DNA of 44,903 bases from Candidatus Zambryskiibacteriota bacterium. Lineage in GTDB: Bacteria > Patescibacteriota > Minisyncoccia > Phycocordibacterales > WO2-35-19. The DNA lies in NCBI GenBank assembly GCA_043799105.1, contig JAZDOB010000031.1, positions 1 through 44,903 on the forward strand, in the 5' to 3' direction. The first letter of the stretch is position 1; each line of letters begins with the position of its first letter. The translations under genes and the position numbers were made by a program. This document shows positions 11,922-40,546 of the stretch, piece after piece. A model generated the notes under the pieces. The model was not told the origin of the DNA, did not search any database, and saw only the letters and a program-made list of their open reading frames with translations.

Positions 11922-12362
11922 TTATAAACTGTTTATGCTTATTTTCCTCTCCGTTTCAGAAACATGTTCAAATTTTATCACAATATGCTTTGGCAAGATT
12001 TTGGCAATGCGTTCCGGCCATTCTATGCAAATCAAATTTTTAGGGTCGGCAATAATTTCATTCCAACCCAGATTCAACATCTCTTCTTCTTTTTCTATCC
12101 TGTACGCATCTATATGTATAAGTTTATCAAAGGAGAGGTTGGGGGTGAGGTCATATATTTTCTCAATAACAAAAGTGGGGCTTTTGATTGTTTCTTTAAT
12201 TCCAAAATTTTCAGCCAAATATTTCATAAAAGTAGTCTTGCCACTTCCCAACTCTCCATACAATCCTACAATAGTCGCCACTTTTTCGTTGGATTTGAGG
12301 TTATTGGCAAAACCGGTGGCTATTTCGGCTGTTTCTGCCACACTTTTAGATAAAAACTCCAT
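11922..12362 (-). CDS. tsaE: tRNA t6A37 biosynthesis ATPase TsaE
   Basis: GELGSGKTTF P-loop, SPTFVI, HIDAYRI and IEWPE motifs are typical of TsaE/YjeE. Confidence 0.85.
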   Translation of the reverse strand: MEFLSKSVAETAEIATGFANNLKSNEKVATIVGLYGELGSGKTTFMKYLAENFGIKETIKSPTFVIEKIYDLTPNLSFDKLIHIDAYRIEKEEEMLNLGWNEIIADPKNLICIEWPERIAKILPKHIVIKFEHVSETERKISINSL

Positions 12363-12440
12363 CCTGTTAGAAATAGGAAATATTATTTCCGTAGTTAATT
12401 TTAATATACCAGAATCTCGTTAGTATATTTCTAACGGGAT
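12361..12440 (-). repeat. TIR element copy A (80 bp)
   Basis: atcctgttagaaat (12361-12374) and atttctaacgggat (12427-12440) are inverted repeats. The left end shares its AT with the tsaE start codon. The 3' end in gene sense (ATTTCCTATTTCTAACAGGATG) resembles that of the GIY-YIG copy. Confidence 0.75.
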
Positions 12441-12502
12441 CCATACACTGATATTAGCACCCCACTTCGCTTCTCGCTACGCTCAAGCTACGCGGGACAA
12501 GT

Positions 12503-13026: not shown

Positions 13027-13105
13027 GGTATCTCCTTTTCTTAGTTAGATTAGAACACCTATCTGTATTATATCATATCCACAGAAAATTGCAAGTCCCC
13101 GTTTT

Positions 13106-13138
13106 CCCCCTCTTAAAATAAGAGGGGGCTGGGGGTGA
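13106..13138 (-). repeat. GC-rich hairpin repeat upstream of the pilB-like gene
   Basis: ccccctctt-aaaat-aagaggggg followed by ctgggggtga. On the reverse strand it reads TCACCCCCAG-CCCCCTCTT...AAGAGGGGG, like 29527-29561. Confidence 0.6.
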
Positions 13139-13155
13139 TATGTTATAATTTCTTT

Positions 13156-16212: not shown

Positions 16213-16237
16213 CAATCCCGCAAGGAAAAGATAAAAA

Positions 16238-16368
16238 ACTTTCGGGAACAGAAGAGGAATTGATTGTTGGAATTCCACCTGTTCGACGGATTGGCGTTGT
16301 TTGTGTTCATCCTGAGCTTGTCACCATCATAGTTGAGGTTGAACACGTTCGGGTTGCCGTCGCGGTCT
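16238..16368 (-). repeat. DGR template repeat (TR)
   Basis: 131-bp gap-free match to 16690-16820. All ~21 differences are A (on the - strand) in this copy. Confidence 0.85.
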
Positions 16369-16684
16369 ATTTGTATACGACGCCGTCTATTACACCGTTC
16401 TCCTCTTGTGGTTACTCAATGAGCAAAAACTTGAGTTTAATTTTATGCGTGATCTTAAATCACGGGGCATCGTATACCAAGTATTTTCTTTTTTGAACAC
16501 ATTGCACACTACTCCATAAAAAGCCGTGGCCGTTTATGATCTGAATGAGCAAATGTTAGAAAGGTTGTGGAAAGCCGTAACCGTCCAACATGACCAAACC
16601 AAAATAATTATAGCAAAAAATCAAAGTATCAAAATCTCAAAGAATCCAAACTAGACTTAAAAAAGAAATTAAGGGTCAAAACAT

Positions 16685-18493
16685 CTAAGACTTGCGGGAA
16701 CAGAAGAGGAATGGATCGTGGGAATTCCACCTGCACGACGGAGCGGCGTCGCCTGTGCTCATCCTGAGCCAGTCACCAACACAGCGGAGGTGGAACACGT
16801 CCGGGTAGCCGTCGCGGTCTGAGATCTGCTTCATAGCGATAAACATCCACCCTGTTTCTGAATATGAAAGACGAAGTTGTGGACCAACCTCGGCAGGACA
16901 GAGTTCCAAACCAAAATCTTCCGCTCTTTTGTATATTTCATCTGTGGTGGCTCCGTTTGGAAAACCCAGATCTTTTACAGTTAGTCTGACGAGGTTTAGG
17001 TCTTCTTGGGTTTCCGATGTTTTGAAGTCTTGGCTGTTTAAAAGATCTTTTGCGTAATCTGAAATATATATGTTTTTTTCTTTCAGTTTTCTTATCAACT
17101 CTTCTTTTGTTTTGTTTCCGATTTGAGTCTCGTATCTTTGTATTTTGCCCTCAGGAAAAGAAGTGAAAATGTTTTCTATATTTGTTTTAAATACTCCGGG
17201 GAAAAGCTCGCCGATATATGCTTTGGTGTTTTGAGTTATTTCGCTTTCACTTGTAGCAATTTCTTCCGGTTTGCAATCTAGAACAACGGGCGCGTCTTCT
17301 TTGGAGTTTCTTTGGTCTCTAATTTCTTGAATCCTAGGGTCATTTTCATACCCAAATCCTTCAATTTTTTCGTTGATTTCGTAGAGGAAAACCAGTTCTT
17401 CTTTGGTCAGCGGTTGGTTTGTCTTTGTCTTGTTTTCAATCTCTGTCATTTTTTTCATGTCTTCGGTTTTCTTTTTGTACGAATCCGCTTCGGAACCGAA
17501 TTCTTTGAGCTTCTCCTCCAAAACTGGAGCCATGACAGGTTCCATTTCCTGATGCTGGAGGATGCCCCTCACTTGACCGATTTGAGAGCTGGTCATTTGG
17601 ATAGCGATTCTCGGCTGGGTTGGCTCGTTGTTTGCATCGTAAGTGTAATACACATAGAAGTCACCTCGATTTATGTAATTTCTCGCTGTCGTTTGTCCTT
17701 CAATGCACCAACCGGTGCCTTTGGTTTGCATTGAATCAAAAAGCTTGTCGGCTTCTTTTTGGTTGCCCTGATTGTATTTAACCCATTCTCCTCTCACCTC
17801 TTCCTGATTTTCAATCTGGTGAGCTAGAGATTCAGAAATGAGTCCGGCGTAGAGTTTGGGAAATGATTTTGAAAACTGTTCCTTTATTTCCGCCTCAGAT
17901 TTTTTGTTCTTTACCGATTCTTCGTAAATGTCCAGTATTTTTGCAAGAGGAGCACGGTATATATCGGGGTACGGAGCAGTGGTTGTGGCTGTTCTGTCTT
18001 TGAACTTGCCAAGGGTTTTGTCAAATTGGGAAAGCTTGGTGATATTTCTGAATACAAAATATTTAAACCATGTGGGGTATGCGGCGTCATCCGATGTCAG
18101 ATATTCTACCCATTGGTCCAGAGAATGCTTTTGGTCTTTGACGATGGTTTCTATCATCTGCTCTCTGGCTTCTTCCGGAATTTCTTCTACGGTTTGGCCC
18201 CTTTCCCTGGCTATCTGCTTTTGCAAATCAAAATATGACTCCGGTACTTCTTCGGGTTTGATGATGAGAGCGTCGTAAATTTTATCCTTGACCATTTCCA
18301 GATTTCTTTCCCTGACTCTTTGGTCTTGATTGAGAAAGATTTTCTCCAGACGGTCCATGTACGCTTCTATCCTTTCGTTGGGGTTGTTTGGAATGTCTGT
18401 ATCTTCCAGCCGCTCCTTCTTTTCCACCGCTTTACTAACCTCCTCAGATTTCTGAAGCTCGGGGATTTTTAAGTGGAGAGGATGTTTTTCCAT
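16685..18493 (-). CDS. DGR target protein (variable C-terminus)
   Basis: 602-aa ORF whose last ~43 codons are the VR. No signal peptide or TM helix seen. The N-terminal 500 aa are not recognised. Confidence 0.75.
   Translation of the reverse strand: MEKHPLHLKIPELQKSEEVSKAVEKKERLEDTDIPNNPNERIEAYMDRLEKIFLNQDQRVRERNLEMVKDKIYDALIIKPEEVPESYFDLQKQIARERGQTVEEIPEEAREQMIETIVKDQKHSLDQWVEYLTSDDAAYPTWFKYFVFRNITKLSQFDKTLGKFKDRTATTTAPYPDIYRAPLAKILDIYEESVKNKKSEAEIKEQFSKSFPKLYAGLISESLAHQIENQEEVRGEWVKYNQGNQKEADKLFDSMQTKGTGWCIEGQTTARNYINRGDFYVYYTYDANNEPTQPRIAIQMTSSQIGQVRGILQHQEMEPVMAPVLEEKLKEFGSEADSYKKKTEDMKKMTEIENKTKTNQPLTKEELVFLYEINEKIEGFGYENDPRIQEIRDQRNSKEDAPVVLDCKPEEIATSESEITQNTKAYIGELFPGVFKTNIENIFTSFPEGKIQRYETQIGNKTKEELIRKLKEKNIYISDYAKDLLNSQDFKTSETQEDLNLVRLTVKDLGFPNGATTDEIYKRAEDFGLELCPAEVGPQLRLSYSETGWMFIAMKQISDRDGYPDVFHLRCVGDWLRMSTGDAAPSCRWNSHDPFLFCSRKS
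16690..16820 (-). repeat. DGR variable repeat (VR)
   Basis: See TR. It occupies the 3' end of ORF 16685..18493 and ends 2 codons before the stop. Confidence 0.85.
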
Positions 18494-28802: not shown

Positions 28803-29526
28803 AACCATAATTTATATACCGCTTTATAACATCTTGGTTCTTATGTTAAACGTGAGCTGGATTGATGTCGGTATTGCCACTGTTATTTTAACCGTACTGG
28901 TTAAAATGATTCTCTACCCTCTCGCCAAAAAATCTACCGTTGCTCAGGCCAAGATGAAAGAAAAAGAAGGAGAACTTTCTCTAATAAAAGAAAAATATAA
29001 AGATAAACAGGAGCAAGCGGTAAAAATAATGGAATTTTATAAAACCAACAAAATCAATCCCTTTTCCAGTATTTTGACAGTTATTATCCAGATTCCTATC
29101 ATTTTCTCTCTCTACTTCATATTTTTTAAATCCGGTCTACCCGTGATTGATGAGAGCCTTCTCTACTCTTTCATAAAAGTGCCGGTATCTGTGTCTATGA
29201 ATTTCTTGGGCTTATTGGATGTCTCTCAAAAAAGCATTGTCTTGGCGTTTCTGGCTGCTATCACCAGTTTCTGGCAAATGCATTTGGCTTCTAAATCAAT
29301 TAAAAGTAATCAGGGCAAGCCCAATTTTGCCAAGACCCCGCCGGGCAGAGAGGATTTTTCTCAGATAATGGCCAAACAAATGAAATATACTATGCCACTT
29401 ATCGTCTTTTTTATTTCTTGGAAAATATCAGGCGTGGTAGCTCTCTACTGGTTTGTCAGCAACTTGGTTGGTATTGCCCAAGATGTTTATGTAAGAAAGC
29501 AGATGTCCAAAGTTTCTCTTTCATAA
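28786..29526 (+). CDS. yidC: membrane protein insertase YidC (short form)
   Basis: 246 aa, YidC/Oxa1-like helices (LVKMILYPLAKKS, NPFSSILTVIIQIPIIFSLY). rpmH-rnpA-yidC synteny. Confidence 0.85.
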   Translation: MIAFFKTIIYIPLYNILVLMLNVSWIDVGIATVILTVLVKMILYPLAKKSTVAQAKMKEKEGELSLIKEKYKDKQEQAVKIMEFYKTNKINPFSSILTVIIQIPIIFSLYFIFFKSGLPVIDESLLYSFIKVPVSVSMNFLGLLDVSQKSIVLAFLAAITSFWQMHLASKSIKSNQGKPNFAKTPPGREDFSQIMAKQMKYTMPLIVFFISWKISGVVALYWFVSNLVGIAQDVYVRKQMSKVSLS

Positions 29527-29621
29527 CACCCCCAACCCCCTCTTACCTTAAGAGGGGGAGGAAAAAAGAATAGATTATATTCCCTCCTGTTTCCCCCTTA
29601 AGATAAGGGGGATTAAGGGGG
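29527..29621. repeat. pair of GC-rich hairpin repeats in opposite orientation
   Basis: cacccccaa-ccccctctt-acctt-aagaggggg (29527-29561), and ccccctta-agat-aaggggg-attaaggggg (29593-29621). They lie between the convergent yidC and ORF 29622..30863. Confidence 0.7.
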
Positions 29622-30863
29622 TTACTCTGCTATTCGGAGCATCCACAAATAGCCATCTATTTTATTACGGAAAATGAGATGGGTTTCGTCGGGAGGGGCA
29701 CTCATATCAACAACATCAATCTTTTGGTCAGACAAGGAGGAGAGATCGGCTATATTGCTGAATATGTTATTATTCAAATCTATTTTTTCTATAAAATCTT
29801 CGGTTGAAACCAATCCTTTGTACCAAATATCGGGGTAATTGCCGTTTGGTATTTGGTTTGGCACGGCGCAATAAACGGAAAGAATCTTCTCTTTGAGCCA
29901 GACGCACTTCTCTGCCAAACTGTTCACGTTTAATTCTTTCAGAGTAACTTTTTTGTTATCAACCAGATATAATTGAGGATAAGCTCCGCCACTTGAAACT
30001 ATACTCAGAGACCCGTCTGGGTTTGGATTTGTGGAAATGCCGGACATGCCCACTCCTGTTTTTTTCAAAACCTTGCTTGATACATCAAAAGAATAATTGT
30101 ATCCGGTATCCACCGAACTTCCTTTGGTTTGCATAATCACTGTGTTTCCGGAAATCCATTTTGGCAACCATTCCGTAAGTGGATGTGTCATTACAGCAAC
30201 GGATCCTGTGCCGTCAGGATTAGCTGTAAACCATTTTGATGACCCGTTTGCTGTGTAGTAGAAAATTTTGGAACCGTCCGGCTTGATGGAGATTTCTTTT
30301 ATTCCTGTCGGCAACTTTCCTATCGTGGTGTTAAACGGAGTTAAACTTTCACTGGTGGTGCTGGCCTTGTTTTTATTTAATTTTACAAAACTGGTTTCTA
30401 TAATTTCACTTCCCGATTCCAAAGTCTGAGCCAGGAAACCACTGCCGTTTGGCAACCAAAAAGCCCTTATTATTTTGGGTATGGTGGTGTTGGTAAGTCT
30501 TTGGATGGCCAAAGAATCAGAAACGGCCTCATAAACGTTGCCTGTTCCTTTTTCTACAAATCTGACTACGCTTGTGGTGCCTACATTGAAAATCACGGCT
30601 CCGGCTACCGGCTCACTTGATAATCTTCGGAGTCTTGGTATTGGTTGGTCTGTCGGAATGATTGTTGGAGTTTCTTCCCCCGTGCCGGTTTCGTCGGTCG
30701 GTGTCTCTGTGCCGGTGTTGTCAGATCCAAATGGCAGGTAATCTCTTATGGAAAATCCCACTCTGCTTTCTCCCGGTGTTTGGGGTTGAGAACCAAAAAT
30801 CAAAAACAGAGCTACGCCCACAATCACCAGTATTCCTATTATTAATAGTATTTTTTTGGTCAT
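29622..30863 (-). CDS. membrane-anchored exported protein with PD40/TolB-like beta-propeller-type repeats
   Basis: N-terminal TM (ILLIIGILVIVGVALFLIF). Recurring (K/N)PDGS...motifs. The start codon is fused to TIR element B. Confidence 0.55.
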   Translation of the reverse strand: MTKKILLIIGILVIVGVALFLIFGSQPQTPGESRVGFSIRDYLPFGSDNTGTETPTDETGTGEETPTIIPTDQPIPRLRRLSSEPVAGAVIFNVGTTSVVRFVEKGTGNVYEAVSDSLAIQRLTNTTIPKIIRAFWLPNGSGFLAQTLESGSEIIETSFVKLNKNKASTTSESLTPFNTTIGKLPTGIKEISIKPDGSKIFYYTANGSSKWFTANPDGTGSVAVMTHPLTEWLPKWISGNTVIMQTKGSSVDTGYNYSFDVSSKVLKKTGVGMSGISTNPNPDGSLSIVSSGGAYPQLYLVDNKKVTLKELNVNSLAEKCVWLKEKILSVYCAVPNQIPNGNYPDIWYKGLVSTEDFIEKIDLNNNIFSNIADLSSLSDQKIDVVDMSAPPDETHLIFRNKIDGYLWMLRIAE

Positions 30864-30969
30864 CCCGTTAGAAATAGAAGATTACACACTCTCGTGCGCT
30901 CTCTTCTATTTTATTTAATCTGTTAATTGTGTTTATCATAATTTTAATCTTCGTGATTTCTAACGGGAT
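30862..30969 (-). repeat. TIR element copy B (108 bp, type 1)
   Basis: atcccgttagaaat (30862-30875) / atttctaacgggat (30956-30969). Its reverse complement matches copy D at 103/108 positions by my alignment. Confidence 0.85.
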
Positions 30970-30973
30970 CATA

Positions 30974-31861
30974 TTATTTAAATACGGTATGCCAGTGGGG
31001 CCCGGAAGATCCGGGAGTATTGGCGCTTTCATATACGAAGTTCACTTTTATCGTCTGCCCGTTTATTAATAGCGTTTTTTGACCGTTATTATCTTTTATA
31101 TATTTATCAAGTTCAGCGGATGGTCTAAGATCTAAGTTGGGTTGGCCGGGGCCATGCGATACGTGCCCCCCTTCTGTACCACCAGTAATTACTAGGCTAC
31201 CTCCGAAATCTTTTTGCAATTGTTCTAATCCACTAATTGCATTGGGCGGCAAACCAACTAGATTTGTACAACCACTTATTCCCCCGCTTATGCATGGGTC
31301 TGCGTTAACGGATATTTTCCCTCCGCTGTCATTCCAAAGTTTGTCTTTTAGCGCTGTATTTTCGGCTACTTGCGTGGCGCTAAGAGAATATCCCGGCAAT
31401 ACACCAGACAATGTTCCCTCTGATCCCGGTGGAGCGTTGGTGGTTGCCTCTTCTATATTCAGATTGAGCTCCAAAAGATTTGGGTTGATGGTGTAAAGAA
31501 TAAGCCAAGCGCCTATAACCAAAACCAAACCGAAGACAGCATTTTTTATCCTATCCTTGCCGGCGCTTTTACCGCTTATGGCGTCAGTTGATATGTATTG
31601 AAAACCGCCGATGACAATCATAAGAACGGCAGACACTGCCGCGATACCAACGGCCAGTTTAAACATTCCCGGCAAGTAATCTTTGAGTTCTGTTTTGGTG
31701 GCTGCTTGCTGGCAATTTTGGTCACTACCTATACAGGGCAATGGGGCCAAGACAGTGTAGCTGTTATCCGGAGTTTGGGCTTGGACAGAGACCTCAAAAG
31801 CAAACAAACTTCCTGTTGCGACCATTCCAATCATCAAAATCATTAAAATTATTCTTTTCAT
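30974..31861 (-). CDS. VirB2/TrbC-like two-TM segment fused to an M15-type (VanY-like) peptidoglycan peptidase domain (tentative)
   Basis: Signal peptide, then a hydrophobic hairpin (LAVGIAAVSAVLMIVIGG...VFGLVLVIGAWLILY). The C-terminal GHVSHGPGQPNLDL and GPHWH resemble the SxHxxGxAxD and HxH zinc ligands of M15 peptidases. Confidence 0.45.
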   Translation of the reverse strand: MKRIILMILMIGMVATGSLFAFEVSVQAQTPDNSYTVLAPLPCIGSDQNCQQAATKTELKDYLPGMFKLAVGIAAVSAVLMIVIGGFQYISTDAISGKSAGKDRIKNAVFGLVLVIGAWLILYTINPNLLELNLNIEEATTNAPPGSEGTLSGVLPGYSLSATQVAENTALKDKLWNDSGGKISVNADPCISGGISGCTNLVGLPPNAISGLEQLQKDFGGSLVITGGTEGGHVSHGPGQPNLDLRPSAELDKYIKDNNGQKTLLINGQTIKVNFVYESANTPGSSGPHWHTVFK

Positions 31862-31864
31862 TTT

Positions 31865-31945
31865 ATCCCGTTAGAAATTTATCTTGTAAGTGTTTGTTGA
31901 TTATTTTTAAGTATAGCGAGTATTTCATAGTATTTCTAACGGGAT
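31865..31945 (-). repeat. TIR element copy C (81 bp, type 2)
   Basis: atcccgttagaaat (31865-31878) / atttctaacgggat (31932-31945). The right end abuts the stop of ORF 31946..32959; the left end is 3 nt from ATG 31861. Its reverse complement is related to copy E. Confidence 0.85.
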
Positions 31946-32959
31946 TTATTCAAAACTCATTGTTAAACTATTATCCGCTTGTTGCAGAATGCGGTTGGTG
32001 TTTTCCATTCGCAAAGAGATGACGGACCTGCCGGTGGTTTTGTCTTCCGGTCTTCTGAAAACTGCAGTCCTAGAACCGGATAATCCCGGAATCGTTTGGC
32101 CGTTTAATGTCCATTCGTATTGTAAACCGCCGCCGCTCTCCTTGGTGAAAAAGTACGGAGCCGCCAAGATCTGAACTTCTTCTGTTTTCAAATTGAAAAT
32201 ATTGGCGATAGCCGACTCGAAAATATGGCCGTAATAGGGATTATTCTCGTAAAAAACTATTTCAGGATCAATCGTCGGAACATCTATAAAACCCTGAGCA
32301 ACCAAATTATTGATTGGGTCGGATATCAAGACCTGCAGGTTTTCACTTCTGCCAAATAATGACCCGTTTAGAACGAGTACATTTTTGCCGTAACCGGACT
32401 GGTCCTGGTATGATTCGGCATCGTTTGACCACTTGTAAACCAGATTTTCCGATGGCACTCTCCTGCCATTTTTGACAAACTCGGGCATGGCCACAATTTT
32501 CAGGACACCCTGTCTTGGGTGCAGAGCTTTGCCCCTATAGAAAGGCGGAACATACGAATTGGCTTCCCAAACCATATCAACACTGGCGGGAGTCAGTGAG
32601 AAGTTTTTTGAAAAAGAGACGCCATTTATAAGTTTGATGTTTACCTTTATATCCGTTTCTTTCCCGATGGGACCGGCATTGAATGAATATTTTATTTCTC
32701 CCTTACCGCTTAAGACCGTTTCGCCGTCTTTAGACCAAGTGATATCAGCCGAACTCAAGTCGCCAGTGTAAAGCTCAAGGTTTAAAAAAACCATCTCGTT
32801 AGGCCTCGGGTAATTGGGAATGATACCAACCCCGAGCTCATTGGAAAGAGCGTAGGGTATATCGATATTCAGACCGCCCATCTGAGCGCCGGAGACCGTC
32901 GGCAAAACTATCAAACAAACACCCGCCACCGCCAGAATTTTTATAAACTTGTTTGGCAT
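31946..32959 (-). CDS. hypothetical secreted protein
   Basis: 337 aa with signal peptide (ILAVAGVCLIVLPTVSGAQ). No family recognised. Confidence 0.55.
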   Translation of the reverse strand: MPNKFIKILAVAGVCLIVLPTVSGAQMGGLNIDIPYALSNELGVGIIPNYPRPNEMVFLNLELYTGDLSSADITWSKDGETVLSGKGEIKYSFNAGPIGKETDIKVNIKLINGVSFSKNFSLTPASVDMVWEANSYVPPFYRGKALHPRQGVLKIVAMPEFVKNGRRVPSENLVYKWSNDAESYQDQSGYGKNVLVLNGSLFGRSENLQVLISDPINNLVAQGFIDVPTIDPEIVFYENNPYYGHIFESAIANIFNLKTEEVQILAAPYFFTKESGGGLQYEWTLNGQTIPGLSGSRTAVFRRPEDKTTGRSVISLRMENTNRILQQADNSLTMSFE

Positions 32960-32991
32960 TTTTTATATTATATCATTTATCCTGTTTATTG

Positions 32992-33020
32992 TTCACCCGT
33001 TGTTGATAATGTTGTATACT
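32992..33020 (+). promoter_or_regulatory. candidate promoter of the rightward genes, upstream of TIR copy D
   Basis: TTCACC (32992-32997), 17-nt spacer, TATACT (33015-33020). An ATGAAT copy follows 7 nt downstream at 33028. Confidence 0.4.
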
Positions 33021-33031
33021 TGAATATATGA

Positions 33032-33139
33032 ATCCCGTTAGAAATCACGAAGATTAAAATCATGACAAACACAATTAGCAGATTAAATAAAATAGAAGAA
33101 AGCGCACTAGAGTGTGTAATCTTCTATTTCTAACGGGAT
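33032..33139 (+). repeat. TIR element copy D (108 bp, type 1)
   Basis: atcccgttagaaat (33032-33045) / atttctaacgggat (33126-33139). The last AT is the start of ATG 33138. Confidence 0.85.
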
Positions 33140-33413
33140 GAATTTAATGAATTTTGTTTCTCCCGGACTTATTTTTACTGTCCTTGCTCTGCTTGTCGTC
33201 TTTGGGTACTGGATATTCAATTTTATAATTCTTTACCATTTGCTTCGTTTTGGCATTGGTGTCCAGCCCAAAAAATTTGCCGCCGTTTTTCTACTGGGCT
33301 CCATCCTTCTCTTCTCTGTGAACGTTATGTTTTTTGCAAATATTAATTTAGATGATCTAAAAAACTTAAATGAAATCCCGTTAGAAATACCATTATTTAC
33401 TCTTAATGCTTAA
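33138..33413 (+). CDS. small membrane protein
   Basis: 91 aa with two hydrophobic helices. The last 13 codons and the stop lie inside TIR copy E. Confidence 0.5.
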   Translation: MNLMNFVSPGLIFTVLALLVVFGYWIFNFIILYHLLRFGIGVQPKKFAAVFLLGSILLFSVNVMFFANINLDDLKNLNEIPLEIPLFTLNA

Positions 33414-33454
33414 ATTAATCAACAAATATTTAATACTTAAATTTCTAACGGGAT
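33375..33454 (+). repeat. TIR element copy E (80 bp, type 2)
   Basis: atcccgttagaaat (33375-33388) / atttctaacgggat (33441-33454). The last AT is the start of ATG 33453. Confidence 0.85.
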
Positions 33455-34001
33455 GAAATCGTTCCTATCAATTTTTACAGCATCAAGTAATTCCTTTGAG
33501 GGCGAGGAAAATGGAGAAAAAGTCGTTTTACTTCTTCGCCGCCACCCCTTTTTTATTCTTGTCCGCATGTTCCTTTTCTTGTTTTTAGCTTTAATACCGA
33601 TAGCCGTTGGCATCGTGTTCCCCCTTTTCCTTTACTCACACAACCTTCTGGCCGCATTCCTTTTTCTTTCCGGTGTCTGGTATGTTTTTATATGGTCAAG
33701 CATTTTTTATGCTCTCACTATGTATACTCTGGACGTTTGGATCGTCACAGATCGCAGGATTATAGACAGCACGCAGAACGGATTTTTCAATCGGACAATT
33801 TCCGAGTTGCATTTAACCAGAATTCAGGATATTTCCGTCCAAACCAAGGGTGTTATTCAAACATTTTTCAAATTTGGCGATTTGCAGATACAAACCGCCG
33901 GCGCCGAAGAAAAATTTAAGTTCTCCCAGATTCCTCATCCGGTAAAAGTAAAGGACGAAATAATGAAATTAGCTTCTGCTCACTCGTCTCCCCATTTATA
34001 A
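33453..34001 (+). CDS. membrane protein with bacterial PH (YdbT/DUF304-like) domain
   Basis: Two TM helices, then WIVTDRRIIDSTQNGFFNRTISELHLTRIQDISVQTKGVIQTFFKFGDLQIQTAG, typical of bPH_2 domains. Confidence 0.6.
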   Translation: MKSFLSIFTASSNSFEGEENGEKVVLLLRRHPFFILVRMFLFLFLALIPIAVGIVFPLFLYSHNLLAAFLFLSGVWYVFIWSSIFYALTMYTLDVWIVTDRRIIDSTQNGFFNRTISELHLTRIQDISVQTKGVIQTFFKFGDLQIQTAGAEEKFKFSQIPHPVKVKDEIMKLASAHSSPHL

Positions 34002-34439
34002 TTTTGTTTTTCCTTGGGCTACACTTGCCACTTTTCCCAGAAGACCGCCCTTGTCTTCGGCTTTTGTCATAAAAACGACTGCGGTTATGCCCGCCGTAAA
34101 GCCCGGCAGAAAACTGAAAAGAAATTCCAATACCGCAGAACCCCCCATCACCCCTAATTTCTTAGGACTTTTGGTAAAAGAAACTCCCAACACCATAAAC
34201 CAAACCCAAAAAGTGAAATAAGCTATTGCTGATATAATTGGCCCCATCACTATCCCCACAACAAGGACTGTCAAAAGAGCCTGCGCGCCGTCAACACATA
34301 AAGCCACAATTATCATACATACCGCCATCCACGTTTTTATCCTTTCTTTTTTTTCCGCCGGTTTCTGAATGATTGTTTTAACGGGTCTTCGCAGGGGCGC
34401 TCTTGGTGTCGCTTGATTTTGTTGGGCGTTCTCATCCAT
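33996..34439 (-). CDS. polytopic small membrane protein (T4SS-like locus)
   Basis: 147 aa with a basic N-terminus and three or four hydrophobic helices. Confidence 0.5.
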   Translation of the reverse strand: MDENAQQNQATPRAPLRRPVKTIIQKPAEKKERIKTWMAVCMIIVALCVDGAQALLTVLVVGIVMGPIISAIAYFTFWVWFMVLGVSFTKSPKKLGVMGGSAVLEFLFSFLPGFTAGITAVVFMTKAEDKGGLLGKVASVAQGKTKL

Positions 34440-34464
34440 AAAAATATTATATCATAGCCATAAA

Positions 34465-34552
34465 GACCCCACCCCATCCGTCTTACGACGTCTTGCCCCT
34501 CACCTTGACAAGGTGAGGGGCGGCATACCGAGAGGGTATGCGGGGTGGGGTC
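34465..34552. repeat. GC-rich nested palindrome inside the T4SS-like operon
   Basis: Outer arms gaccccacccc(a)/(c)ggggtggggtc; inner hairpins cccctcacc-ttgacaa-ggtgagggg and catacc-gagag-ggtatg. Lies between the virB4-like stop and the next ORF start. Confidence 0.7.
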
Positions 34553-34553
34553 G

Positions 34554-36362
34554 TTATTTCCCCTCCAAATCCTTTCTCTGTTTTTTGATGGCCAAGACTT
34601 GAGAAGGGTCGGTGGTTATGATTTGCTCTTCGGTGTAAGAGGCGATTATTTTGATAGCCACGTGTTTGAGGCCGGCAAAAAAGATGCCCTCCCCCACTCC
34701 CGATTCCAAGAGCAGATATTTTTCTTCATCGGTTAAATTGAAAACCTGCTTCAGTCTGTCCATAACCGTGGCTGACTGCTTAAGCAAAATTTGAATAGAA
34801 GAGTTTGTAACTATGGGCATACCGTATGGAGATTTCAAAAAGTCGTCTACGTCCTGGGTGATGGTTGCCAACCCCAGATAATATTTGCGGCCTCTTTTAG
34901 CCAAAGAAAGCAGGAAGGAGGCGGTGTCCTCGGACTTCATCATCCACCACGCCTCGTCAATCACCAAAAGTCTTTTCTTCAATTCCCGTCTGATGGAGTT
35001 CCATATATAGTGGGTAACAATGTACATAGCAACCGGCTTAAGTTCATCCTCCATGTCCCTGATGGAGAAGACTATAAATTTTTTGTTTATGTCAATGTTT
35101 GAAGGCCGGTTTATAAAATTTGACCAAGAACCTCTGGTGTATTTGGACAATCTCTGGGCCAAGGATTCTCCCCCCTCCATACCGCCGAGCACCATTTCAA
35201 AATCGGACAGGAGTGGCGGTTCCACGTTTTTAAAGTCAGAGTCGGGGGTGATATCTTTCAGGGCGTAAGTTTCGGTTATGGCTCTATCAATGATAGCGTC
35301 TTCTTCGGCCGTGAGCCCGCCCATCATTATTCGAAAGAGACCGACCAAATTCAGTATTTGTGATCTGAGGACGCTTGCCGAAGATTCGTCTTCTCCCGGT
35401 ATAGGAAGTTCAAAAGGGTTTATGTGATGATCGGAGTTTAAGGAAATGCCGAAATATCTCCCCCCCACCGCCTCGGCCATATATTGGTATTCGTTTTCAG
35501 GGTCTATGACTATAACTTCTGTGTCAAACATAAGAGTTCTCAAAATCTCGAGTTTTACGGCGAAAGATTTACCGGAGCCGGATTTGGCAAAAGTAACCGA
35601 GTTGTAGTTTTCCAAAGAAAATCTGTCAAAAAGCACCAGAGATGAATTGTGGCGGTTGATGCCGTACAGAATACCCTTGTCGGAAGTAAGGTCAAAAGAA
35701 ATGAATGGGAAAATGGACGAAAGTGGTGAAGAATTTATTTTGGAATGAACAAGGAGCCCGTCCTCGGCTATGGGCAAAACGCTTTTGAAACCCTGCTCTT
35801 GTTGGAAAAGAGCCGGTTTTACATAGACCATTTTGGATTCAAGAATAGATTTTATTTCAGATTCTGCTTTGTCCAGCTCATCACTGCTTCCGGCATAAAT
35901 CGAAATATACAAACCGACCTCAAACATTTTTTCCTGCGCCTGCTGGAGCTGGTCGCGCAAGTTTTCCAAATCTTGATAAGCGGTATCAAGCAGGGGGTCG
36001 CGCACCAGACCCTTTTCCTCTCTGGTTCTGATCTGGCTCTGGACTTCGGCAACCTTTTTTTGGAAGTTTCTCAAAATTTTGGCGGTTTCCAGGGGGTGAA
36101 CAAAAATGGAGACATCAAACATTTTGTCCATATTAATAATCGGCGAAAACCAGTCTTCTGACAAAAATCTCGGATAGGAAATAACGAAAAAGCTTCTAAC
36201 CACTTTTTCTCCCAGGTTCAGTTCTTTCGCGTTTACTTTAAGAGCGCTTGGCGCCAAGATATCACGTAATTCCAACTCTACCCCTTCGGCTACAGACTTT
36301 GGTAAAACCGAAATGGATGTAAGACTCTCTTCTTTTTTCTTTTTTTTCAAAAAATCAAACAT
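34554..36362 (-). CDS. VirB4/TraE-family T4SS ATPase (C-terminal 3/4)
   Basis: Walker A KSGSGKSFAVK, Walker B LLVIDEAWWMM. N-terminal ILAPSALKV...VVRSFFVISYPRFL motif typical of Gram-positive-type VirB4. Confidence 0.8.
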   Translation of the reverse strand: MFDFLKKKKKEESLTSISVLPKSVAEGVELELRDILAPSALKVNAKELNLGEKVVRSFFVISYPRFLSEDWFSPIINMDKMFDVSIFVHPLETAKILRNFQKKVAEVQSQIRTREEKGLVRDPLLDTAYQDLENLRDQLQQAQEKMFEVGLYISIYAGSSDELDKAESEIKSILESKMVYVKPALFQQEQGFKSVLPIAEDGLLVHSKINSSPLSSIFPFISFDLTSDKGILYGINRHNSSLVLFDRFSLENYNSVTFAKSGSGKSFAVKLEILRTLMFDTEVIVIDPENEYQYMAEAVGGRYFGISLNSDHHINPFELPIPGEDESSASVLRSQILNLVGLFRIMMGGLTAEEDAIIDRAITETYALKDITPDSDFKNVEPPLLSDFEMVLGGMEGGESLAQRLSKYTRGSWSNFINRPSNIDINKKFIVFSIRDMEDELKPVAMYIVTHYIWNSIRRELKKRLLVIDEAWWMMKSEDTASFLLSLAKRGRKYYLGLATITQDVDDFLKSPYGMPIVTNSSIQILLKQSATVMDRLKQVFNLTDEEKYLLLESGVGEGIFFAGLKHVAIKIIASYTEEQIITTDPSQVLAIKKQRKDLEGK

Positions 36363-36979
36363 TATATCTTGATGGGTTTTTCCGATTCTCCCGGATTAAA
36401 CACTTTATAAAACAATTCTACCACTTCATCGGTGCCGAGCTTGGCCACTCTCACCCCGCAACGTACTAAACCCTGTTCCACTACCGACATTCTCTGTTCC
36501 AACTGATTCTTTTTCTCCTCAAAATCCTCTTCTTTGGCTTGCTGGTCTTTTTTGGCTCCAAGACCGAATGAAAACTTGCCGCCGGACTTGATGATGGCTG
36601 CGTCATACGGGATAACTATAAAAAAGTTTTTAGTCATAATATTGGTGGATTCGGTAAAACTTTTTACGAAAGCTATGTACTGTTCAATCTGGATTTTCAT
36701 CAAATCGTTGGTCTGTTCCTTGTATCTGCCCTCTAAAAGGGCTATATACGGCCTGATGTCAAGTCTTCTGGATTGAATCAAAATCTGCACGGAAAAATCC
36801 AAAGAATTCAAAAAATCTTGAAATTGCAAAAGTATCGCCTGCCTCTCATCATCCGACTTCAGAGCGAAGTTTATGGAAGAGGCCATAAGAATGCCCCTCA
36901 TTCCCCCGTCTTTCATTATAACGATGCCATCATGAACATCGTCTATCGGCACAAATTCTTGAGTTGCATTTTTTGACAT
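36362..36979 (-). CDS. VirB4 N-terminal-domain-like protein (separate ORF)
   Basis: VPIDDVHDGIVIMKDGGMRGILMASSINFALKSDDERQAILLQFQDFLNSL resembles the extreme N-terminus of Gram-positive VirB4 proteins. TAATG stop/start overlap with the ATPase ORF. Confidence 0.5.
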   Translation of the reverse strand: MSKNATQEFVPIDDVHDGIVIMKDGGMRGILMASSINFALKSDDERQAILLQFQDFLNSLDFSVQILIQSRRLDIRPYIALLEGRYKEQTNDLMKIQIEQYIAFVKSFTESTNIMTKNFFIVIPYDAAIIKSGGKFSFGLGAKKDQQAKEEDFEEKKNQLEQRMSVVEQGLVRCGVRVAKLGTDEVVELFYKVFNPGESEKPIKI

Positions 36980-36988
36980 AAATACATT

Positions 36989-37420
36989 TTAGCCCAAATC
37001 TTGGCTCTTAGCCAATGACTCATCTTCTTTTTTCTTTACGTCCAGTTCCCAACTCATATCTTTAAGTTTGTTTCCGGACAAATTTGGCACCACGAGCGAA
37101 CTATATTTTTTTTCTTTCTCCTCCGCCTCGTTTTCTTCCGGCTCTTTCTTTTTCCAGATATATAATTTGTCTTTGACGTAATATCTAAAAGCCGATTCCA
37201 TAATATTTACAAAAGGTCGGTTATTTACTCTGTAAAATGCCAAAGCTGTGGCCAAAACAACAATCGGTGAAGCAAGCAAGAGCCCAAAGAAAATGCCAAA
37301 AAAAGTGGCAGATGCGACAGCGACAGAAGCCCCGCCGGCTAAATAAACGAATTGTTTCAATGTAAAAGGCCCGAATATCTTGTCTTCTACATCTATAAAT
37401 TGTGGTATTTGAAATTTCAT
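36989..37420 (-). CDS. PrgI/VirB3-like membrane protein
   Basis: MKFQIPQFIDVEDKIFGPFTLKQFVYLAGG plus two TM helices, immediately upstream of the virB4-like genes. Confidence 0.6.
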   Translation of the reverse strand: MKFQIPQFIDVEDKIFGPFTLKQFVYLAGGASVAVASATFFGIFFGLLLASPIVVLATALAFYRVNNRPFVNIMESAFRYYVKDKLYIWKKKEPEENEAEEKEKKYSSLVVPNLSGNKLKDMSWELDVKKKEDESLAKSQDLG

Positions 37421-37464
37421 AACACGACACTAATTACGAATTAAAACGAATGACACTAATAAAC

Positions 37465-38037
37465 TCACTCAATTGGTTCACGATATGGATCGGTACCCGG
37501 CACGTAATTATGAATCGCTTTGGGTTTTTCTTCCGCTTGCCCTTCCCCTGTCGGCAGATTATTTGGTGTTTCCTCCCGCCTTCGCTCGTCCACTGCGGGC
37601 TTCGCCACGCCATAGCCGAGCTTCGGCGAGGCGACGGCGGGTTGCATCGCCTTGGCTTGATTTAAAATAATTTGTTCAAAATCTGTGCCGACTTTGTTTG
37701 TGACGTTTTCGGCTTGCTCGGCCATTTGCCACATTGAAGTTATCTCGTCTGAAACTTTGCTGAAAATATTTTTATTAACGTCCTCTGCAATCCACCCAGC
37801 CATATTGTTGTCTATTCCCAATTCTTTTTTTATACTTTCTGCGAAATCAGTTGGCGGTTCAAGACACAGAAGAACAAGAAAAACTTCATTTTCAAATAAA
37901 GCGTATTTCTCTTCATCAAAACTAAATCGTTCGCTTACCCTTTGTGCATCTCCCCTCCATTTTTCGTCCACCATAAAAGCCCTCAATTGCTCGGGTAATA
38001 TTTTTATCCTTTCTTTTATTGTTTCTTTGTAATCCAT
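37465..38037 (-). CDS. hypothetical protein (T4SS-like locus)
   Basis: 190 aa, soluble. The GC-rich 3' third (about 37480-37650) encodes ASPKLGYGVAKPAVDERRRE, possibly another in-frame GC-rich repeat. Confidence 0.5.
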   Translation of the reverse strand: MDYKETIKERIKILPEQLRAFMVDEKWRGDAQRVSERFSFDEEKYALFENEVFLVLLCLEPPTDFAESIKKELGIDNNMAGWIAEDVNKNIFSKVSDEITSMWQMAEQAENVTNKVGTDFEQIILNQAKAMQPAVASPKLGYGVAKPAVDERRREETPNNLPTGEGQAEEKPKAIHNYVPGTDPYREPIE

Positions 38038-38042
38038 ATTGT

Positions 38043-40289
38043 CTACGGGTTAGTTGGGGGCGTCCCTCCTCCGGCCGGTTGTACCGAGGGTGTTGGTGAA
38101 GGGGCAGAAGCTGTTTCGGAAGTTTTCTCTTTTTCGTCTATTTCTTTTTGACTTTCTCTTGCTAAGTCGGCTATTTTTTCTGCCTTGGATTTTTCCCTAG
38201 CTTGCTCTCTGATTCCTCTTGCTGCGGCCTTATAGCCCTGTTTTGGTTGGAAAGGACCAAGCCATCTCGTTCCAAATAGTCCTTTGTCGAGTCTTTCCGC
38301 GTAAGCTCTTTGTCTATCACCACCCGCTTTATTGATTGCTTGTGTCTCTAGAGAATACTCGTCATCGTCAATATCTTTTTTATTCAATTTCTTCTTTGTC
38401 TCAGTTGCCACCCCCCTCTTTTCGTCAGCAACATCTTTTAATCCTTTATAAGCATTATCGTTTTCTTCTATTTCCTTTTCGGCCTCCTTTCTCATCTCTC
38501 TTTCGTTTGCCATTTTTGAAGTTATAGCCTCAAGTTCTTTGTCTATAGTTTCGACACTGGCTTTATCACCCGCTTCTTTGGCCTTTCTTAGTTCCTCTTC
38601 TTTGGCTCTCTTCTCGTTGTTTAATTCGCTCGATCGTTGCGCGTGTGGTTTTAGTTTTTCGTCCATATATTTCTTCCTCTCTTTTTCTGCTTTTTCTGCT
38701 TCCGCTCTTGCATTGGCTTCTTTTGCGGCTCTATCTGCTCTGATGCCCACCCCCTCTCTCTTCTTTCTATTTTCAAACTCTTCCTTCTCCGCACCCGTTT
38801 GTCCATAAACATCTTTGGCATACGCCGCTTTTGCTTTGGCTTTTTCGTCAACAGATTTTTGGAATCCTCCTTTGCCGGTTGCTTTTCCTGCAATGCCCAT
38901 CACTTTCTCGGCTCCAACGGCCTTACCTAATCCTGTGCCAGCTACACCCCTGACATCAAAGCTTCCTTTCTTTCCCTTATCTGCCACCCAAAGTCCAGCT
39001 CTACCGAGGGTAGATTTTGACCACTCTTCTCTTTTCTTTTCAGACACCAAACCAGATACTCTGCCCACGGTATTTCTTGTTGCCCAAGCGGTGCCACCCA
39101 TGGCAACACCACCAATTCCTCCAGAAATAGCCTTAAATGCCCCGCCGGTGGCGCCTTTGGAAGCCATTTGTTTGGAAAGTATAGGAGCGGCGATGGCGAG
39201 ACCAACTATTAGTGTAAAGTTGACAATCAGGGCCATGGCACTCTTCGGATTTGTCGTTATTTGAGAAAAAGTTGCTCCTGCAGGTTTTCCCAACGCTCCA
39301 AGAAGTGAATCGCCTACTTTGAAAACCACCCAAGTGAGGGCAAAATAAAGAGGAGCAAAAAATGATTGGGCAAGCAACGAATCCTTCCAATCCTCAAAGT
39401 GCTTTTTTTGCCCGGGAATAATGAAGGCGATTAAAGCCAGAGGAGAGAGAATCATTAAGAAAATAAGAATAATAAACCGAGCGAGAAACATTATGCCGGC
39501 CATCAAAAGCATAACGGCTGTAATAAGCATAAATACAGAACTCAAAATACCAAAGACCAATATCCCGGGAGCATCCAAATCGCCCGCTCCCAATACGTCA
39601 GTACCATAAAACGTATGCACGCCAAGCATATTTTCGTAACCGGCCGAAATACTCTTAACTTGCGTACCGTCACGTGTAATGGTATTGGAAGATATTGAAT
39701 TATAAAAACCGACAGCCACTATATTTGAGGCGTCAATGACCACTTTTGAAAAAAACAAACTGAAATTTATGAGAAGAGCTACGATGATTATATCTTTTAC
39801 TGTTTTGCCGAAGTTGCCAAAGTTTGTATCAAACATTGCCTTGAATGCGGCGAAGAGAAGAACAAATATAAAACACATATTGGCCACATCCCGTAGTGTT
39901 GCCCACGCTTTGGTGATAGCCCCTCCGACCCCGTTGGGGTCGCCTATATTTGTGGCCATGTTTACTATGCTGAACTCTACTACTTTATCAAATAGCCACC
40001 CGCTAATTCCCATTGTCCAGGACGATATTTTCATTAAAGTTTCAGCAATGCCAGTCGCTAATGCTTTAAATACAAAGTCGCCCGCCTTTTTTAATTGAGC
40101 GTCTGCTGCGACGCCAGCCACTGAAGGATTATTTTGATTTGTTATACAACGAGGAGGAACGGTAATAATATCCCATATACCGCCCGCAGCCCTGCAATCT
40201 GCCTCAGTTGATTGTCCAAACGCGACATAGGGAACTAAAATCCCCGCCAAAACAACAATCAATATTCCGAATGTAAGAAATTTTTTCAT
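38043..40289 (-). CDS. VirB6/TrbL-like polytopic membrane protein with long Lys/Glu/Ala-rich tail
   Basis: Signal peptide, at least 6 hydrophobic helices over aa 130-390, then a ~300-aa charged coiled-coil-like region and a Pro-rich end. Its ATG overlaps the GIY-YIG stop (ATGA). Confidence 0.55.
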   Translation of the reverse strand: MKKFLTFGILIVVLAGILVPYVAFGQSTEADCRAAGGIWDIITVPPRCITNQNNPSVAGVAADAQLKKAGDFVFKALATGIAETLMKISSWTMGISGWLFDKVVEFSIVNMATNIGDPNGVGGAITKAWATLRDVANMCFIFVLLFAAFKAMFDTNFGNFGKTVKDIIIVALLINFSLFFSKVVIDASNIVAVGFYNSISSNTITRDGTQVKSISAGYENMLGVHTFYGTDVLGAGDLDAPGILVFGILSSVFMLITAVMLLMAGIMFLARFIILIFLMILSPLALIAFIIPGQKKHFEDWKDSLLAQSFFAPLYFALTWVVFKVGDSLLGALGKPAGATFSQITTNPKSAMALIVNFTLIVGLAIAAPILSKQMASKGATGGAFKAISGGIGGVAMGGTAWATRNTVGRVSGLVSEKKREEWSKSTLGRAGLWVADKGKKGSFDVRGVAGTGLGKAVGAEKVMGIAGKATGKGGFQKSVDEKAKAKAAYAKDVYGQTGAEKEEFENRKKREGVGIRADRAAKEANARAEAEKAEKERKKYMDEKLKPHAQRSSELNNEKRAKEEELRKAKEAGDKASVETIDKELEAITSKMANEREMRKEAEKEIEENDNAYKGLKDVADEKRGVATETKKKLNKKDIDDDEYSLETQAINKAGGDRQRAYAERLDKGLFGTRWLGPFQPKQGYKAAARGIREQAREKSKAEKIADLARESQKEIDEKEKTSETASAPSPTPSVQPAGGGTPPTNP

Positions 40290-40546
40290 CCCGTTAGAGA
40301 CAGGAAATGTTTCAAACGAGTTTTAAGATATCGTTTGCCCATACCTGATTTTAAATACTTCTCTCTCGACCTCGCATCTCGTTCGTTTAACGAGGCTTCG
40401 TAATATATCAATTCATACGGACTTCGGCTTTTAGTGTAAGTTGATTTACCCTCGTTGTGTTGTTTGAAACGTTTCCGTAGATCAATCGTTGATCCTGTGT
40501 ATAAATAATTATTTTTCATACTTTTAATTACGTAAGTGTAGAACAT
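40286..40546 (-). CDS. small GIY-YIG nuclease-domain protein
   Basis: 86 aa. FYTYVIKS...YLYTGSTIDLRKRFKQHN...YYE...REKYLK matches the GIY-(10)-YTG, R and E/N motifs of the URI/GIY-YIG domain. Confidence 0.8.
   Translation of the reverse strand: MFYTYVIKSMKNNYLYTGSTIDLRKRFKQHNEGKSTYTKSRSPYELIYYEASLNERDARSREKYLKSGMGKRYLKTRLKHFLSLTG

Follow-up and report, generated by a model that had tools for sequence, protein, structure and literature searches.

Why should the same inverted repeat stand directly in front of one start codon after another? The question is raised by a contig of 44,903 nucleotides (nt) from a Candidatus Zambryskiibacteriota bacterium (JAZDOB010000031.1, assembly GCA_043799105.1, positions 1 to 44,903 of the forward strand; G+C 40%), the whole of which we call the window. 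It carries six copies of the repeat, A to F, which a first-pass annotation had read as a target duplication of variable length centred on translation start sites or, alternatively, as an insertion preference for ATG-A-rich start contexts. Our analysis confirms that the observation is real and holds far beyond the window, and it supports the core of the first of these readings, target duplication centred on start codons. The six copies are insertions of one very small transposable-element family that is widespread in Patescibacteria (the candidate phyla radiation, CPR); A to E are short non-coding derivatives of the MITE type (miniature inverted-repeat transposable elements), and F, in a point absent from the first-pass annotation, encodes a GIY-YIG open reading frame (ORF). 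We consider it likely that this is a family resembling insertion sequences (IS) and MITEs, mobilised by a structure-recognising GIY-YIG nuclease, whose insertions survive mainly where the host gene stays translatable. All of the evidence is comparative, the contigs of metagenome-assembled genomes are fragmentary, and the counts of start adjacency use simple ORF criteria.

The copies are defined by the paired arms CC(C/T)GTTAGA...TCTAAC(G/A)GG, read in the sense of the downstream gene. The arm 10-mer, with at most one mismatch, occurs 13 times in the window as compared with 3.0 ± 1.7 times in shuffled sequence (0 of 100 shuffles reach 13), and the 13 matches pair up into the following six elements:

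Element A: minus strand, core 12363-12438, with termini 12362..12439; a 76-nt short derivative with one arm mismatch (CCTG); duplication TGGA at 12358-12361 and 12440-12443; host gene tsaE, 11922-12362.
Element B: minus strand, core 30864-30967, with termini 30863..30968; a 104-nt short derivative; duplication TGA at 30860-30862 and 30969-30971; host gene an ORF of 413 residues, 29622-30863.
Element C: minus strand, core 31867-31943, with termini 31866..31944; a 77-nt short derivative; duplication TAAA at 31862-31865 and 31945-31948.
Element D: plus strand, core 33034-33137, terminal T 33033, terminal A 33138; a 104-nt short derivative; duplication TGAA at 33029-33032 and 33139-33142; host gene an ORF of 91 residues, 33138-33413.
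Start codons at D: plus strand, flank (native) ATG 33028-33030, regenerated host ATG 33138-33140.
Element E: plus strand, core 33377-33452, with termini 33376..33453; a 76-nt short derivative; duplication TGAAA at 33371-33375 and 33454-33458; host gene encoding a bPH_2 protein, 33453-34001.
Element F: minus strand, core CCCGTTAGAGAC...GTCTCTAACGGG, 40290-40566 (277 nt); the full-length copy; terminal T 40567, terminal A 40289 (also the first base of the host ATG); no flanking duplication (TCTA vs TGAA).
Host gene of F: minus strand, 38043..40289; 748 residues, called VirB6-like in the first-pass annotation; within a cluster resembling a type IV secretion system (T4SS).

In A, B, D, E and F the right arm is followed by the ATG of a long ORF, so the claim that every copy abuts a start codon stands for these five; in C the ATG comes 5 nt after CGGG, the element occupying the short spacer that precedes the ATG (31859-31861) of the T4SS-pilin gene (30974-31861). 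The tsaE assignment is supported by a Pfam match at 1.4e-32, and the 748-residue host protein of F has no Pfam match. The interiors of D and B are 93% identical; only four pairs of elements have similar interiors, all in the same orientation. One pilin/T4SS-like cluster (29600-40600) holds five of the six copies, with B, C, D and E bracketing three consecutive genes; T4SS_pilin and DUF4141 are recognised there by Pfam, and P-loop_TraG, TraC-like and PrgI genes by synteny with a related contig (L204, below). In single-strand folds the flanking AT...AT enters a 14-base-pair (bp) outer stem (z -5.2 to -5.8 for B-E, with D at -5.2, and -1.8 for A); the start codon is partly paired in the stem, as the first-pass annotation states.

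The direct repeats around the copies are as previously given (A ATGGAT/ATGGAG, B ATGAT/ATGAC, C ATAAAT/ATAAAA, D ATGAAT/ATGAAT, E ATGAAAT/ATGAAAT, F only AT/AT), and a set of 236 non-redundant elements indicates how they should be parsed. Positions -1 and +1 are complementary in 232 of the 236 (C/G 117, T/A 110, A/T 4, G/C 1), and the match of -1 with +6 is 0.29, the chance level; since these positions are complementary and not duplicated, we place them within the element as its termini, such that it ends T-CCCG...CGGG-A or, in a sister subfamily, C...G. Outside the termini the longest exact direct repeat is 4 nt long in 156 of 236 elements, where permutation of the flanks gives 43 (3 nt in 17 elements, 5 nt in 7), and the per-position match is 0.80-0.86 within the repeat and 0.29 and 0.55 just outside it. 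The flanking tetramers co-vary (TGAA, TAAA, TGAG, TGGA, TCAA, TTGA, TTCA, TGTA); because those other than TGAA do so in both flanks, the repeat reflects a genuine duplication and is no fixed end of the element. The duplication is thus upheld and its parse as 4 to 7 bp of variable length is replaced by one of mostly 4 bp plus an element-terminal T and A, with a target consensus of T[G/A]AA that is most often the TGAA of an ATGAA start.

It follows from this parse that the host start codon after insertion consists of the last base of the element (A, G, rarely T) and the duplicated TG. The T...A subfamily leaves the host an ATG and the C...G subfamily a GTG; flanks of the form ATGAAC|...|GTGAAx, in which the host start has been switched from ATG to GTG, are seen in many metagenome copies, for example at L092, L094, L101, L133 and L158, and the rare A...T and G...C termini yield TTG (L122) and CTG (L116). 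Three other parses were considered and set aside. A 6-bp duplication (ATGAAT/ATGAAx) is at odds with the chance-level match of -1 to +6 and with the ATGAAC|GTGAAx flanks of the C...G subfamily. A 2-bp duplication with AT as the element ends is at odds with the co-variation of -2 with +5 in all eight cases noted by eye with G at -2 (ATGAGT|ATGAGx and the like). A model without duplication, as for IS605, does not accommodate the diverse tetramers that co-vary in both flanks. An asymmetry of G-U and A-C at -2/+2, looked for as a sign of pairing at the RNA level, tells nothing either way, since the start codon dictates the T of ATG.

If the copies are insertions, relatives should exist in which the sites are empty, and three syntenic contigs (L201/L204, L202 and L203, annotated as Patescibacteria or Paceibacterota) provide them. 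They have the same order of pilin/T4SS-like genes, with a bPH protein 75-78% identical to that of the window; L201-L204 are without the arm motif, and at each of the sites B to F they have one start codon only:

Site B: empty in L201, L202 and L203, e.g. aaataaaATGACTAAAAAAATA; filled in the window, aataatATGA-T[element]A-TGACCAAAAAAATA.
Site C: empty in L203, tttgaataaaaaATGAAT.
Site D: empty in L203, tatactgtgagtatATGGATTTC; filled in the window, tatacttgaatatATGAA-T[element]A-TGAATTTA.
Site E: empty in L201 and L202; a 21-nt remnant in L203.
Site F: empty in L204; the host N-terminus is conserved, MKKFLTFGILIVVL in the window vs MTKRLLTFGILIVVL in the L204 ortholog.

Among Kaiserbacteria, two neighbouring genes are reciprocally filled and empty when L060 is compared with L068 and L074. 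These empty sites show that the copies are insertions and that a single ATG, with one copy of the repeat, stood there beforehand, as the first-pass annotation had suggested should be looked for. The remnant in L203 lies at the start of the bPH ortholog (4276-4300, ATGAA-TCCCATTAGAAATACC-ATGAAATCA); it is a 21-nt in-frame piece of the left arm of an E-type element, gives the protein a 7-residue N-terminal extension (MNPIRNT), and is probably a deletion scar.

The same comparison bears on whether the hairpins are instead native cis-regulatory leaders that arose on the spot, for example as an attenuator, a thermosensor or an RNase III site, with flank repeats due to chance in A/T-rich start contexts. 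The start codon is indeed partly paired in a stable stem, a terminator-like hairpin lies within D (33102-33117), and the Correia elements of Neisseria are MITE hairpins that can be processed by RNase III when they lie in leaders. Orthologs in the syntenic relatives are entirely without the hairpins, however, and as an origin this explanation is contradicted by the empty sites; moreover, there are thousands of loci in which these arms lie on either side of a nuclease gene, the flank tetramers co-vary far above permutation, and Rfam returned no match at the gathering score in the window and none at E up to 1 in 30800-33500. We therefore regard an origin as native leaders as highly improbable; a regulatory side-effect of the insertions is possible.

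What the element itself encodes is evident from copy F:

GIY-YIG nuclease ORF: minus strand, 40286-40546; 86 residues; Pfam PF01541, E 1.5e-16, 60.9 bits against a cut-off of 22.6.
Nuclease stop codon: minus strand, TGA 40286-40288, overlapping the host ATG 40287-40289.

The ORF runs through the right inverted repeat, so that its last codons (...FLSLTG) are the arm, and it has no stop codon of its own. Roughly 5000 homologs, 73-88% identical and drawn from many CPR lineages, came back from a protein search; every one has the LSLTG end, and many of them are called as 95 residues starting MNPVRD, which is ATGAAT plus the left arm read in frame. The protein belongs to the GIY-YIG superfamily by domain match, catalytic residues and fold. 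Y5, Y16-x-G18, R26, H30, E50 and E62 are invariant among 21 sequences, and the spacing of Y5-Y16-R26-H30 equals that of the I-TevI catalytic positions Y6-Y17-R27-H31. An AlphaFold model (pLDDT 88) finds its top PDB fold matches in UPF0213 BH0048, Slx1 and the I-TevI catalytic domain, with probabilities of 0.69-1.0 and modest E-values of 1e-3 to 0.4. It is a single domain, of 86 residues or of 95 if read from the flank ATG, with no second domain. Across 57 gap-free copies the median dN/dS is 0.13 with synonymous sites saturated (median pS 0.77); low dN/dS at saturated synonymous sites indicates that the nuclease has been kept functional, with the arms nearly unchanged at the nucleotide level. 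An NCBIfam scan gave only a sub-threshold match to a group I intron endonuclease, and the nearest named relatives, by indirect tests, are UPF0213/YazA. Viral contigs hold only five distant relatives (43-54% identity), on which ground carriage by phage was rejected.

When one genome per species was scanned, 384 relatives came up and 80 loci (82 nuclease ORFs) were kept; positions were counted by anchoring on the protein alone, independently of the repeat pattern, relative to co-directional ORFs of at least 60 residues. The nuclease ORF lies within 10 nt of such an ORF in 71 of 82 cases (in three of the others nothing but a tandem short copy stands between it and the host gene), and its stop overlaps the start of that ORF, as in ATGA, in 64. 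The architecture of F is common to 58 full-length elements in other CPR genomes. Among 60 full-length elements with canonical arms (F and 59 from other contigs), 50 have a TGA stop that overlaps the host ATG and 4 stop at TAA, and in 25 the nuclease shares its frame with the flank start codon. The full-length form measures about 272-283 bp, with terminal inverted repeats of 13-15 bp, (T/C)CCCGTTAGAG..., around the nuclease gene as its sole gene. In nearly every one of the 82 listed copies that carry the nuclease, the two arms agree at 13-15 of 16 positions, and they vary in concert across subfamilies (GTTAGAGAT, GTACGAAAT, GTTAAAGAC, GTTACATCC, TTCCGTTAGAG...). Extra copies of the repeat accompany the gene, five more in the 45 kilobases of the window and short copies in several other CPR loci.

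Tandem copies are found at L079 (1001-1396), L032 (~9960-10257), L160 (2611-2720) and L009 (10001-10403), and in these the start codon restored by the first element is the precise position of the second (...CTAACGGG-ATGAT-CCCGTTAGA...); the target is made anew by each insertion.

The family thus shows terminal inverted repeats, target-site duplication and presence/absence polymorphism, as a transposable element should; no transposase of a recognised class (DDE, HUH, serine or tyrosine recombinase) is found in it, and the GIY-YIG nuclease is its only ORF. Might an unrelated transposase, for example an IS5-like or PIF/Harbinger-like DDE enzyme with TNA/TNNA duplications, move the short copies in trans, the GIY-YIG gene being a passenger or a hitchhiker of the homing-endonuclease kind? 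Several elements of the IS5 group and of the Harbinger type typically make T...A duplications of 3-4 bp, short copies far outnumber nuclease genes on the sampled contigs, and the arms of F are unlike those of A-E. Yet in every full-length copy examined the arm-bounded unit holds the GIY-YIG ORF and nothing else, and the nuclease is under strong purifying selection inside the repeat, with a C-terminus encoded by the arm. Nor is there a larger element with a transposase and the same arms in 204 loci (~2 megabases); pairs of 266-336 nt in L140 and L172, considered as candidates for one, are composite non-coding copies. This explanation appears quite unlikely to us.

A second use for such a nuclease has been described in Neisseria meningitidis, where SsnA acts at the hairpin repeats NTS/SRM (Chenal et al., Nat Commun 2025, PMC11893778), and the elements could accordingly be a domesticated system of the Ssn/NTS type, with the arms serving as hairpins recognised by a nuclease specific for single strands, which would cut single-stranded DNA as it enters the cell or replicates; the arrangement of hairpin, gene and hairpin would tune recombination or transformation near surface and T4SS genes, as has been reported for Neisseria. 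The Ssn enzymes of Neisseria and others, single-domain GIY-YIG nucleases of 94 residues, have hairpin repeats on both sides of the gene and many copies near membrane-protein genes, and they cut single-stranded DNA beside the hairpin, even when the hairpin halves lie on separate strands that reform the stem (PMC11893778). The SsnA residues that were mutated, Y6, Y17 and E64, correspond in position to Y5, Y16 and E62, and the bracketing of three consecutive pilin/T4SS-like genes by B, C, D and E, with F in the same cluster, recalls the genomic setting of Ssn repeats. Against this, the degenerate published SRM motif (HGTCWY...RNCYNB) matches neither strand of the window (0 hits), the gene lies between the two halves of one split repeat with no complete hairpin on each side, and tblastn against plasmids gave only Firmicutes relatives of the YazA/UPF0213 type. 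Base-precise placement at starts, 4-bp duplications, empty sites, the 21-nt remnant and the tandems are, moreover, signatures of insertion and not those of a signal that the host encodes. We consider a domesticated Ssn-type role unlikely as the explanation of the family, while noting that it and transposition are compatible, since a mobile element can also affect recombination.

Why, then, are start codons the site? The window holds 7068 TNNA sites and 230 ATG[AG]A sites, and only 9.6% of the latter coincide with the first ATG of an ORF that has 80 or more residues; a placement of 4 of 4 at such starts (p ~8e-5) is not explained by chance, and target preference alone is insufficient to account for this location. 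The full-length element is stopless and borrows the TGA or TAA of the duplication, so that an insertion inside a gene would truncate that gene; at a start codon, by comparison, the whole host ORF remains intact behind the stop/start overlap, which points to a T[G/A]AA preference together with purifying selection. Most likely, therefore, target preference and selection against disruptive insertions act together, and the alternative once offered, a preference for ATG-A contexts, is correct as one part of the answer.

A sister family of 93 nt has the same arms, flanks of the form GTAAAC|...|GTAAAx, and a highly conserved interior with two GC hairpins that show compensatory changes; it occurs at L082, L088, L091, L102, L130, L137, L172 and L173 (1943-2035) and at about 25 more metagenome loci, and has no Rfam match. 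It inserts in frame and adds 33 stop-free codons, PVRNSSGALNPAGIILK.NPAAEQRGIISNGV, to NuoG/Fdh-like proteins, NuoI, an ABC ATPase, an FtsX-like permease and ExeA-like proteins. In-frame insertion of this sort is a different way of being tolerated, and together with a metagenome scan blind to the flanks, in which 52 of 146 short copies abut a start codon, it lends support to target preference combined with selection.

Expression of the interrupted genes can be approached through the sequence that precedes the flank start. A -10-like hexamer ends 5-9 nt 5' of that start at 36 of 99 sites, as compared with 8.8% of random positions and 24% of other ORF starts, and motifs resembling a Shine-Dalgarno (SD) sequence are not enriched upstream of the flank ATG. 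Copy D provides an example:

Promoter-like site at D: plus strand, 32992..33020, TTCACC-17-TATACT, ending 7 nt 5' of the D flank ATG; a consensus match only.

The same TATACT box stands 5' of the single ATG in L203. Judged by sequence, the site at D has the spacing expected for a leaderless transcript, and the stretch 5' of the flank ATG resembles a native start region; given such native-like signals, the host promoter and initiation codon would drive the nuclease ORF or a short upstream ORF (uORF). Across loci L001-L080 and the window, SD-like motifs are found at 11-20% of ORF starts and a -10-like hexamer 5-9 nt upstream at about a quarter, a combination of few SD motifs and upstream hexamers that suggests widespread leaderless transcripts. 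The remark that none of these genes has room for an SD sequence (the D and E starts lack one) needs the addition that the native signals stay at the upstream ATG and that full-length copies probably pass ribosomes on through the ATGA overlap.

Of 70 short copies, 7 have no flank start codon. In the others the uORF that begins at the flank ATG comes to an early stop (39 copies), ends 4 nt short of the host ATG (12, B among them), continues through in frame (5) or runs out of frame beyond the host start (7). The uORF of B stops at the right-arm TAA, 4 nt before the host ATG, and that of A, read directly and outside the 70, runs for 24 codons from the flank ATG (12442-12444) to a right-arm TAA 4 nt before the tsaE ATG. 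B (30869-30940) and D (33061-33132) also have in common a 23-codon ORF, M[TI]NTI[SN]RLNKIEESA[LR]ECVIFYF*, that ends at the right-arm TAA, 4 nt 5' of the host ATG; as three of the four differences between its two copies alter the amino acid, a conserved peptide is doubtful. Copy E supplies the upstream 91-residue ORF (33138-33413) with its final 12 codons and stop (...NLNEIPLEIPLFTLNA*; 33377-33413), and without E that ORF would overlap the bPH gene by ~38 nt.

These observations can be assembled into a mechanism in which the GIY-YIG protein would mobilise the element. Slx1 and UPF0213, its nearest folds, are nucleases specific for DNA structure. By analogy with Slx1-like and Ssn-type enzymes, the nuclease would probably recognise the structure formed by the paired arms, as a cruciform or a single-stranded hairpin, and cut next to the base of the stem; a 4-nt stagger between the cuts would yield the duplication of about 4 bp of target, T[G/A]AA, usually TGAA from a start that reads ATGAA. 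Because GIY-YIG enzymes act by hydrolysis, joining would need host functions such as repair or ligation. The upstream copy of the start codon retains the promoter or other initiation signals of the host gene, and the downstream one is rebuilt from the terminal A or G of the element and the duplicated TG. In most full-length copies the nuclease ORF ends in the TGA inside ATGA; the host gene behind it would be translated by termination-reinitiation at that overlap, and in about 40% of copies the nuclease would be read from the host's own start codon (MNPVRD...).

Several points weigh against this picture. The evidence that the nuclease moves the element is comparative and draws on analogy, and we know of no prokaryotic IS family that uses a hydrolytic GIY-YIG enzyme. 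F is without a duplication, and its arms read AGAGAC as compared with AGAAAT in A-E, so that F may not mobilise A-E; among 120 metagenome contigs with short copies, which are themselves short, only two also carry the nuclease. Start adjacency, clear beyond the window for the nuclease ORFs, is found for only 52 of 146 short copies in a metagenome scan that was blind to the flanks and covered the AGAAAT type, one arm type in one length range, and the 93-nt subfamily lies within genes and not at starts. The host ATG of short copies falls within the 14-bp stem, and coupling of host translation to a continuous uORF, which was considered for short copies, is not generally kept (early stop in 39 of 70). 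We nonetheless hold an IS/MITE-like family mobilised by its own nuclease to be the probable explanation. Full-text literature searches found no GIY-YIG transposase in prokaryotes and no description of this CPR element or lifestyle. A broader claim is put forward tentatively, as a serious possibility that we would not yet call probable: that this is a prokaryotic DNA transposon of a new class, one that has an 86-residue GIY-YIG structure-specific nuclease as its only protein, is specialised on start codons, takes over a promoter and initiation codon, is stopless, and returns the ribosome to the host gene through an ATGA overlap that uses the element's last base, with a sister lineage that has become an in-frame, stop-free protein insert of 33 codons.

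Other features of the window stand apart from the family. An inverted pair of 38 nt (13105-13142 / 29522-29559, 89% complementary), with the GC hairpin CCCCCTCTTAAAATAAGAGGGGG, is probably a repeated terminator-like motif at gene ends, and a 143-nt stretch is present in two direct copies (16226-16368 / 16678-16820, 83% identical, 452 nt apart). An association with tRNA genes was rejected, the single tRNA-Lys of the window being distant from every copy.

If the nuclease does move the element, GIY-YIG enzymes would join the short list of enzyme classes that drive prokaryotic transposition, and at ~278 bp this may be the smallest autonomous element known. The family illustrates a survival strategy in genomes with almost no spare DNA, namely to occupy the one position that tolerates a stop plus a start. 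The element rewrites host starts (one subfamily turns ATG into GTG) and brings with it uORFs, hairpins in leaders, tails at the C-terminus of host proteins or peptides in frame within them, and it accounts for thousands of CPR annotations as "GIY-YIG nuclease family protein", including the 95-residue MNPVRD calls. The copies also offer natural material on SD-independent, leaderless and reinitiation-based translation in Patescibacteria, and they would tie the recently described Ssn/NTS nucleases to a concrete mobile-element lifestyle.

Comparison with known systems places the family between several of them. The authors of the Ssn study remark that the arrangement they describe resembles an insertion sequence, and report no target-site duplication, empty sites, start-codon placement or CPR members (PMC11893778). 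In common with Ssn, the CPR element has a single-domain GIY-YIG protein of ~90 residues, a gene bracketed by inverted repeats that have many extra genomic copies, catalytic Tyr, Tyr and Glu at near-equal positions, and copies clustered around membrane or surface genes. Unlike Ssn, in which each side has a complete hairpin of 20-50 nt, its arms are split around the gene or a short interior as one long-range inverted repeat, and the nearest relatives of the nuclease in sequence and structure are UPF0213/YazA and Slx1.

Bacterial MITEs and small IS (Correia, IS5-group, Harbinger-type) share with it terminal inverted repeats, short T...A duplications, the coexistence of autonomous and deletion-derived copies, and hairpins in mRNA leaders; the CPR element differs in that its only ORF is an 86-residue GIY-YIG protein and not a DDE, HUH, serine or tyrosine transposase, in being stopless, and in rebuilding start codons with base precision. 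Rickettsia palindromic elements are likewise short palindromic mobile repeats that survive only where genes are unbroken, and the 93-nt in-frame family resembles them; in contrast to them, the window copies lie outside coding regions, at the start codon, with E adding only a C-terminal tail and stop, and to our knowledge no nuclease gene is associated with the Rickettsia elements. IS200/IS605 and the repetitive extragenic palindromes with their RAYT transposases (REP/RAYT) are also very small, with an end structure that is probably recognised, a short target and many non-autonomous hairpin copies. These systems use an HUH Y1 transposase with covalent intermediates and subterminal hairpins and make no target duplication, whereas here a 4-bp duplication is the rule and the arms form one long-range inverted repeat. 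Free-standing GIY-YIG homing endonucleases (T4 Seg, I-TevI) offer the parallel of a selfish nuclease gene wedged between host genes, but the CPR nuclease has no DNA-binding domain, inverted repeats, duplications and non-coding derivatives are present, and the host genes are diverse with no single cognate site, only a few ortholog pairs being both filled. Among described systems, Ssn/NTS of Neisseria is the closest in architecture, and in its behaviour the family is like IS and MITEs.

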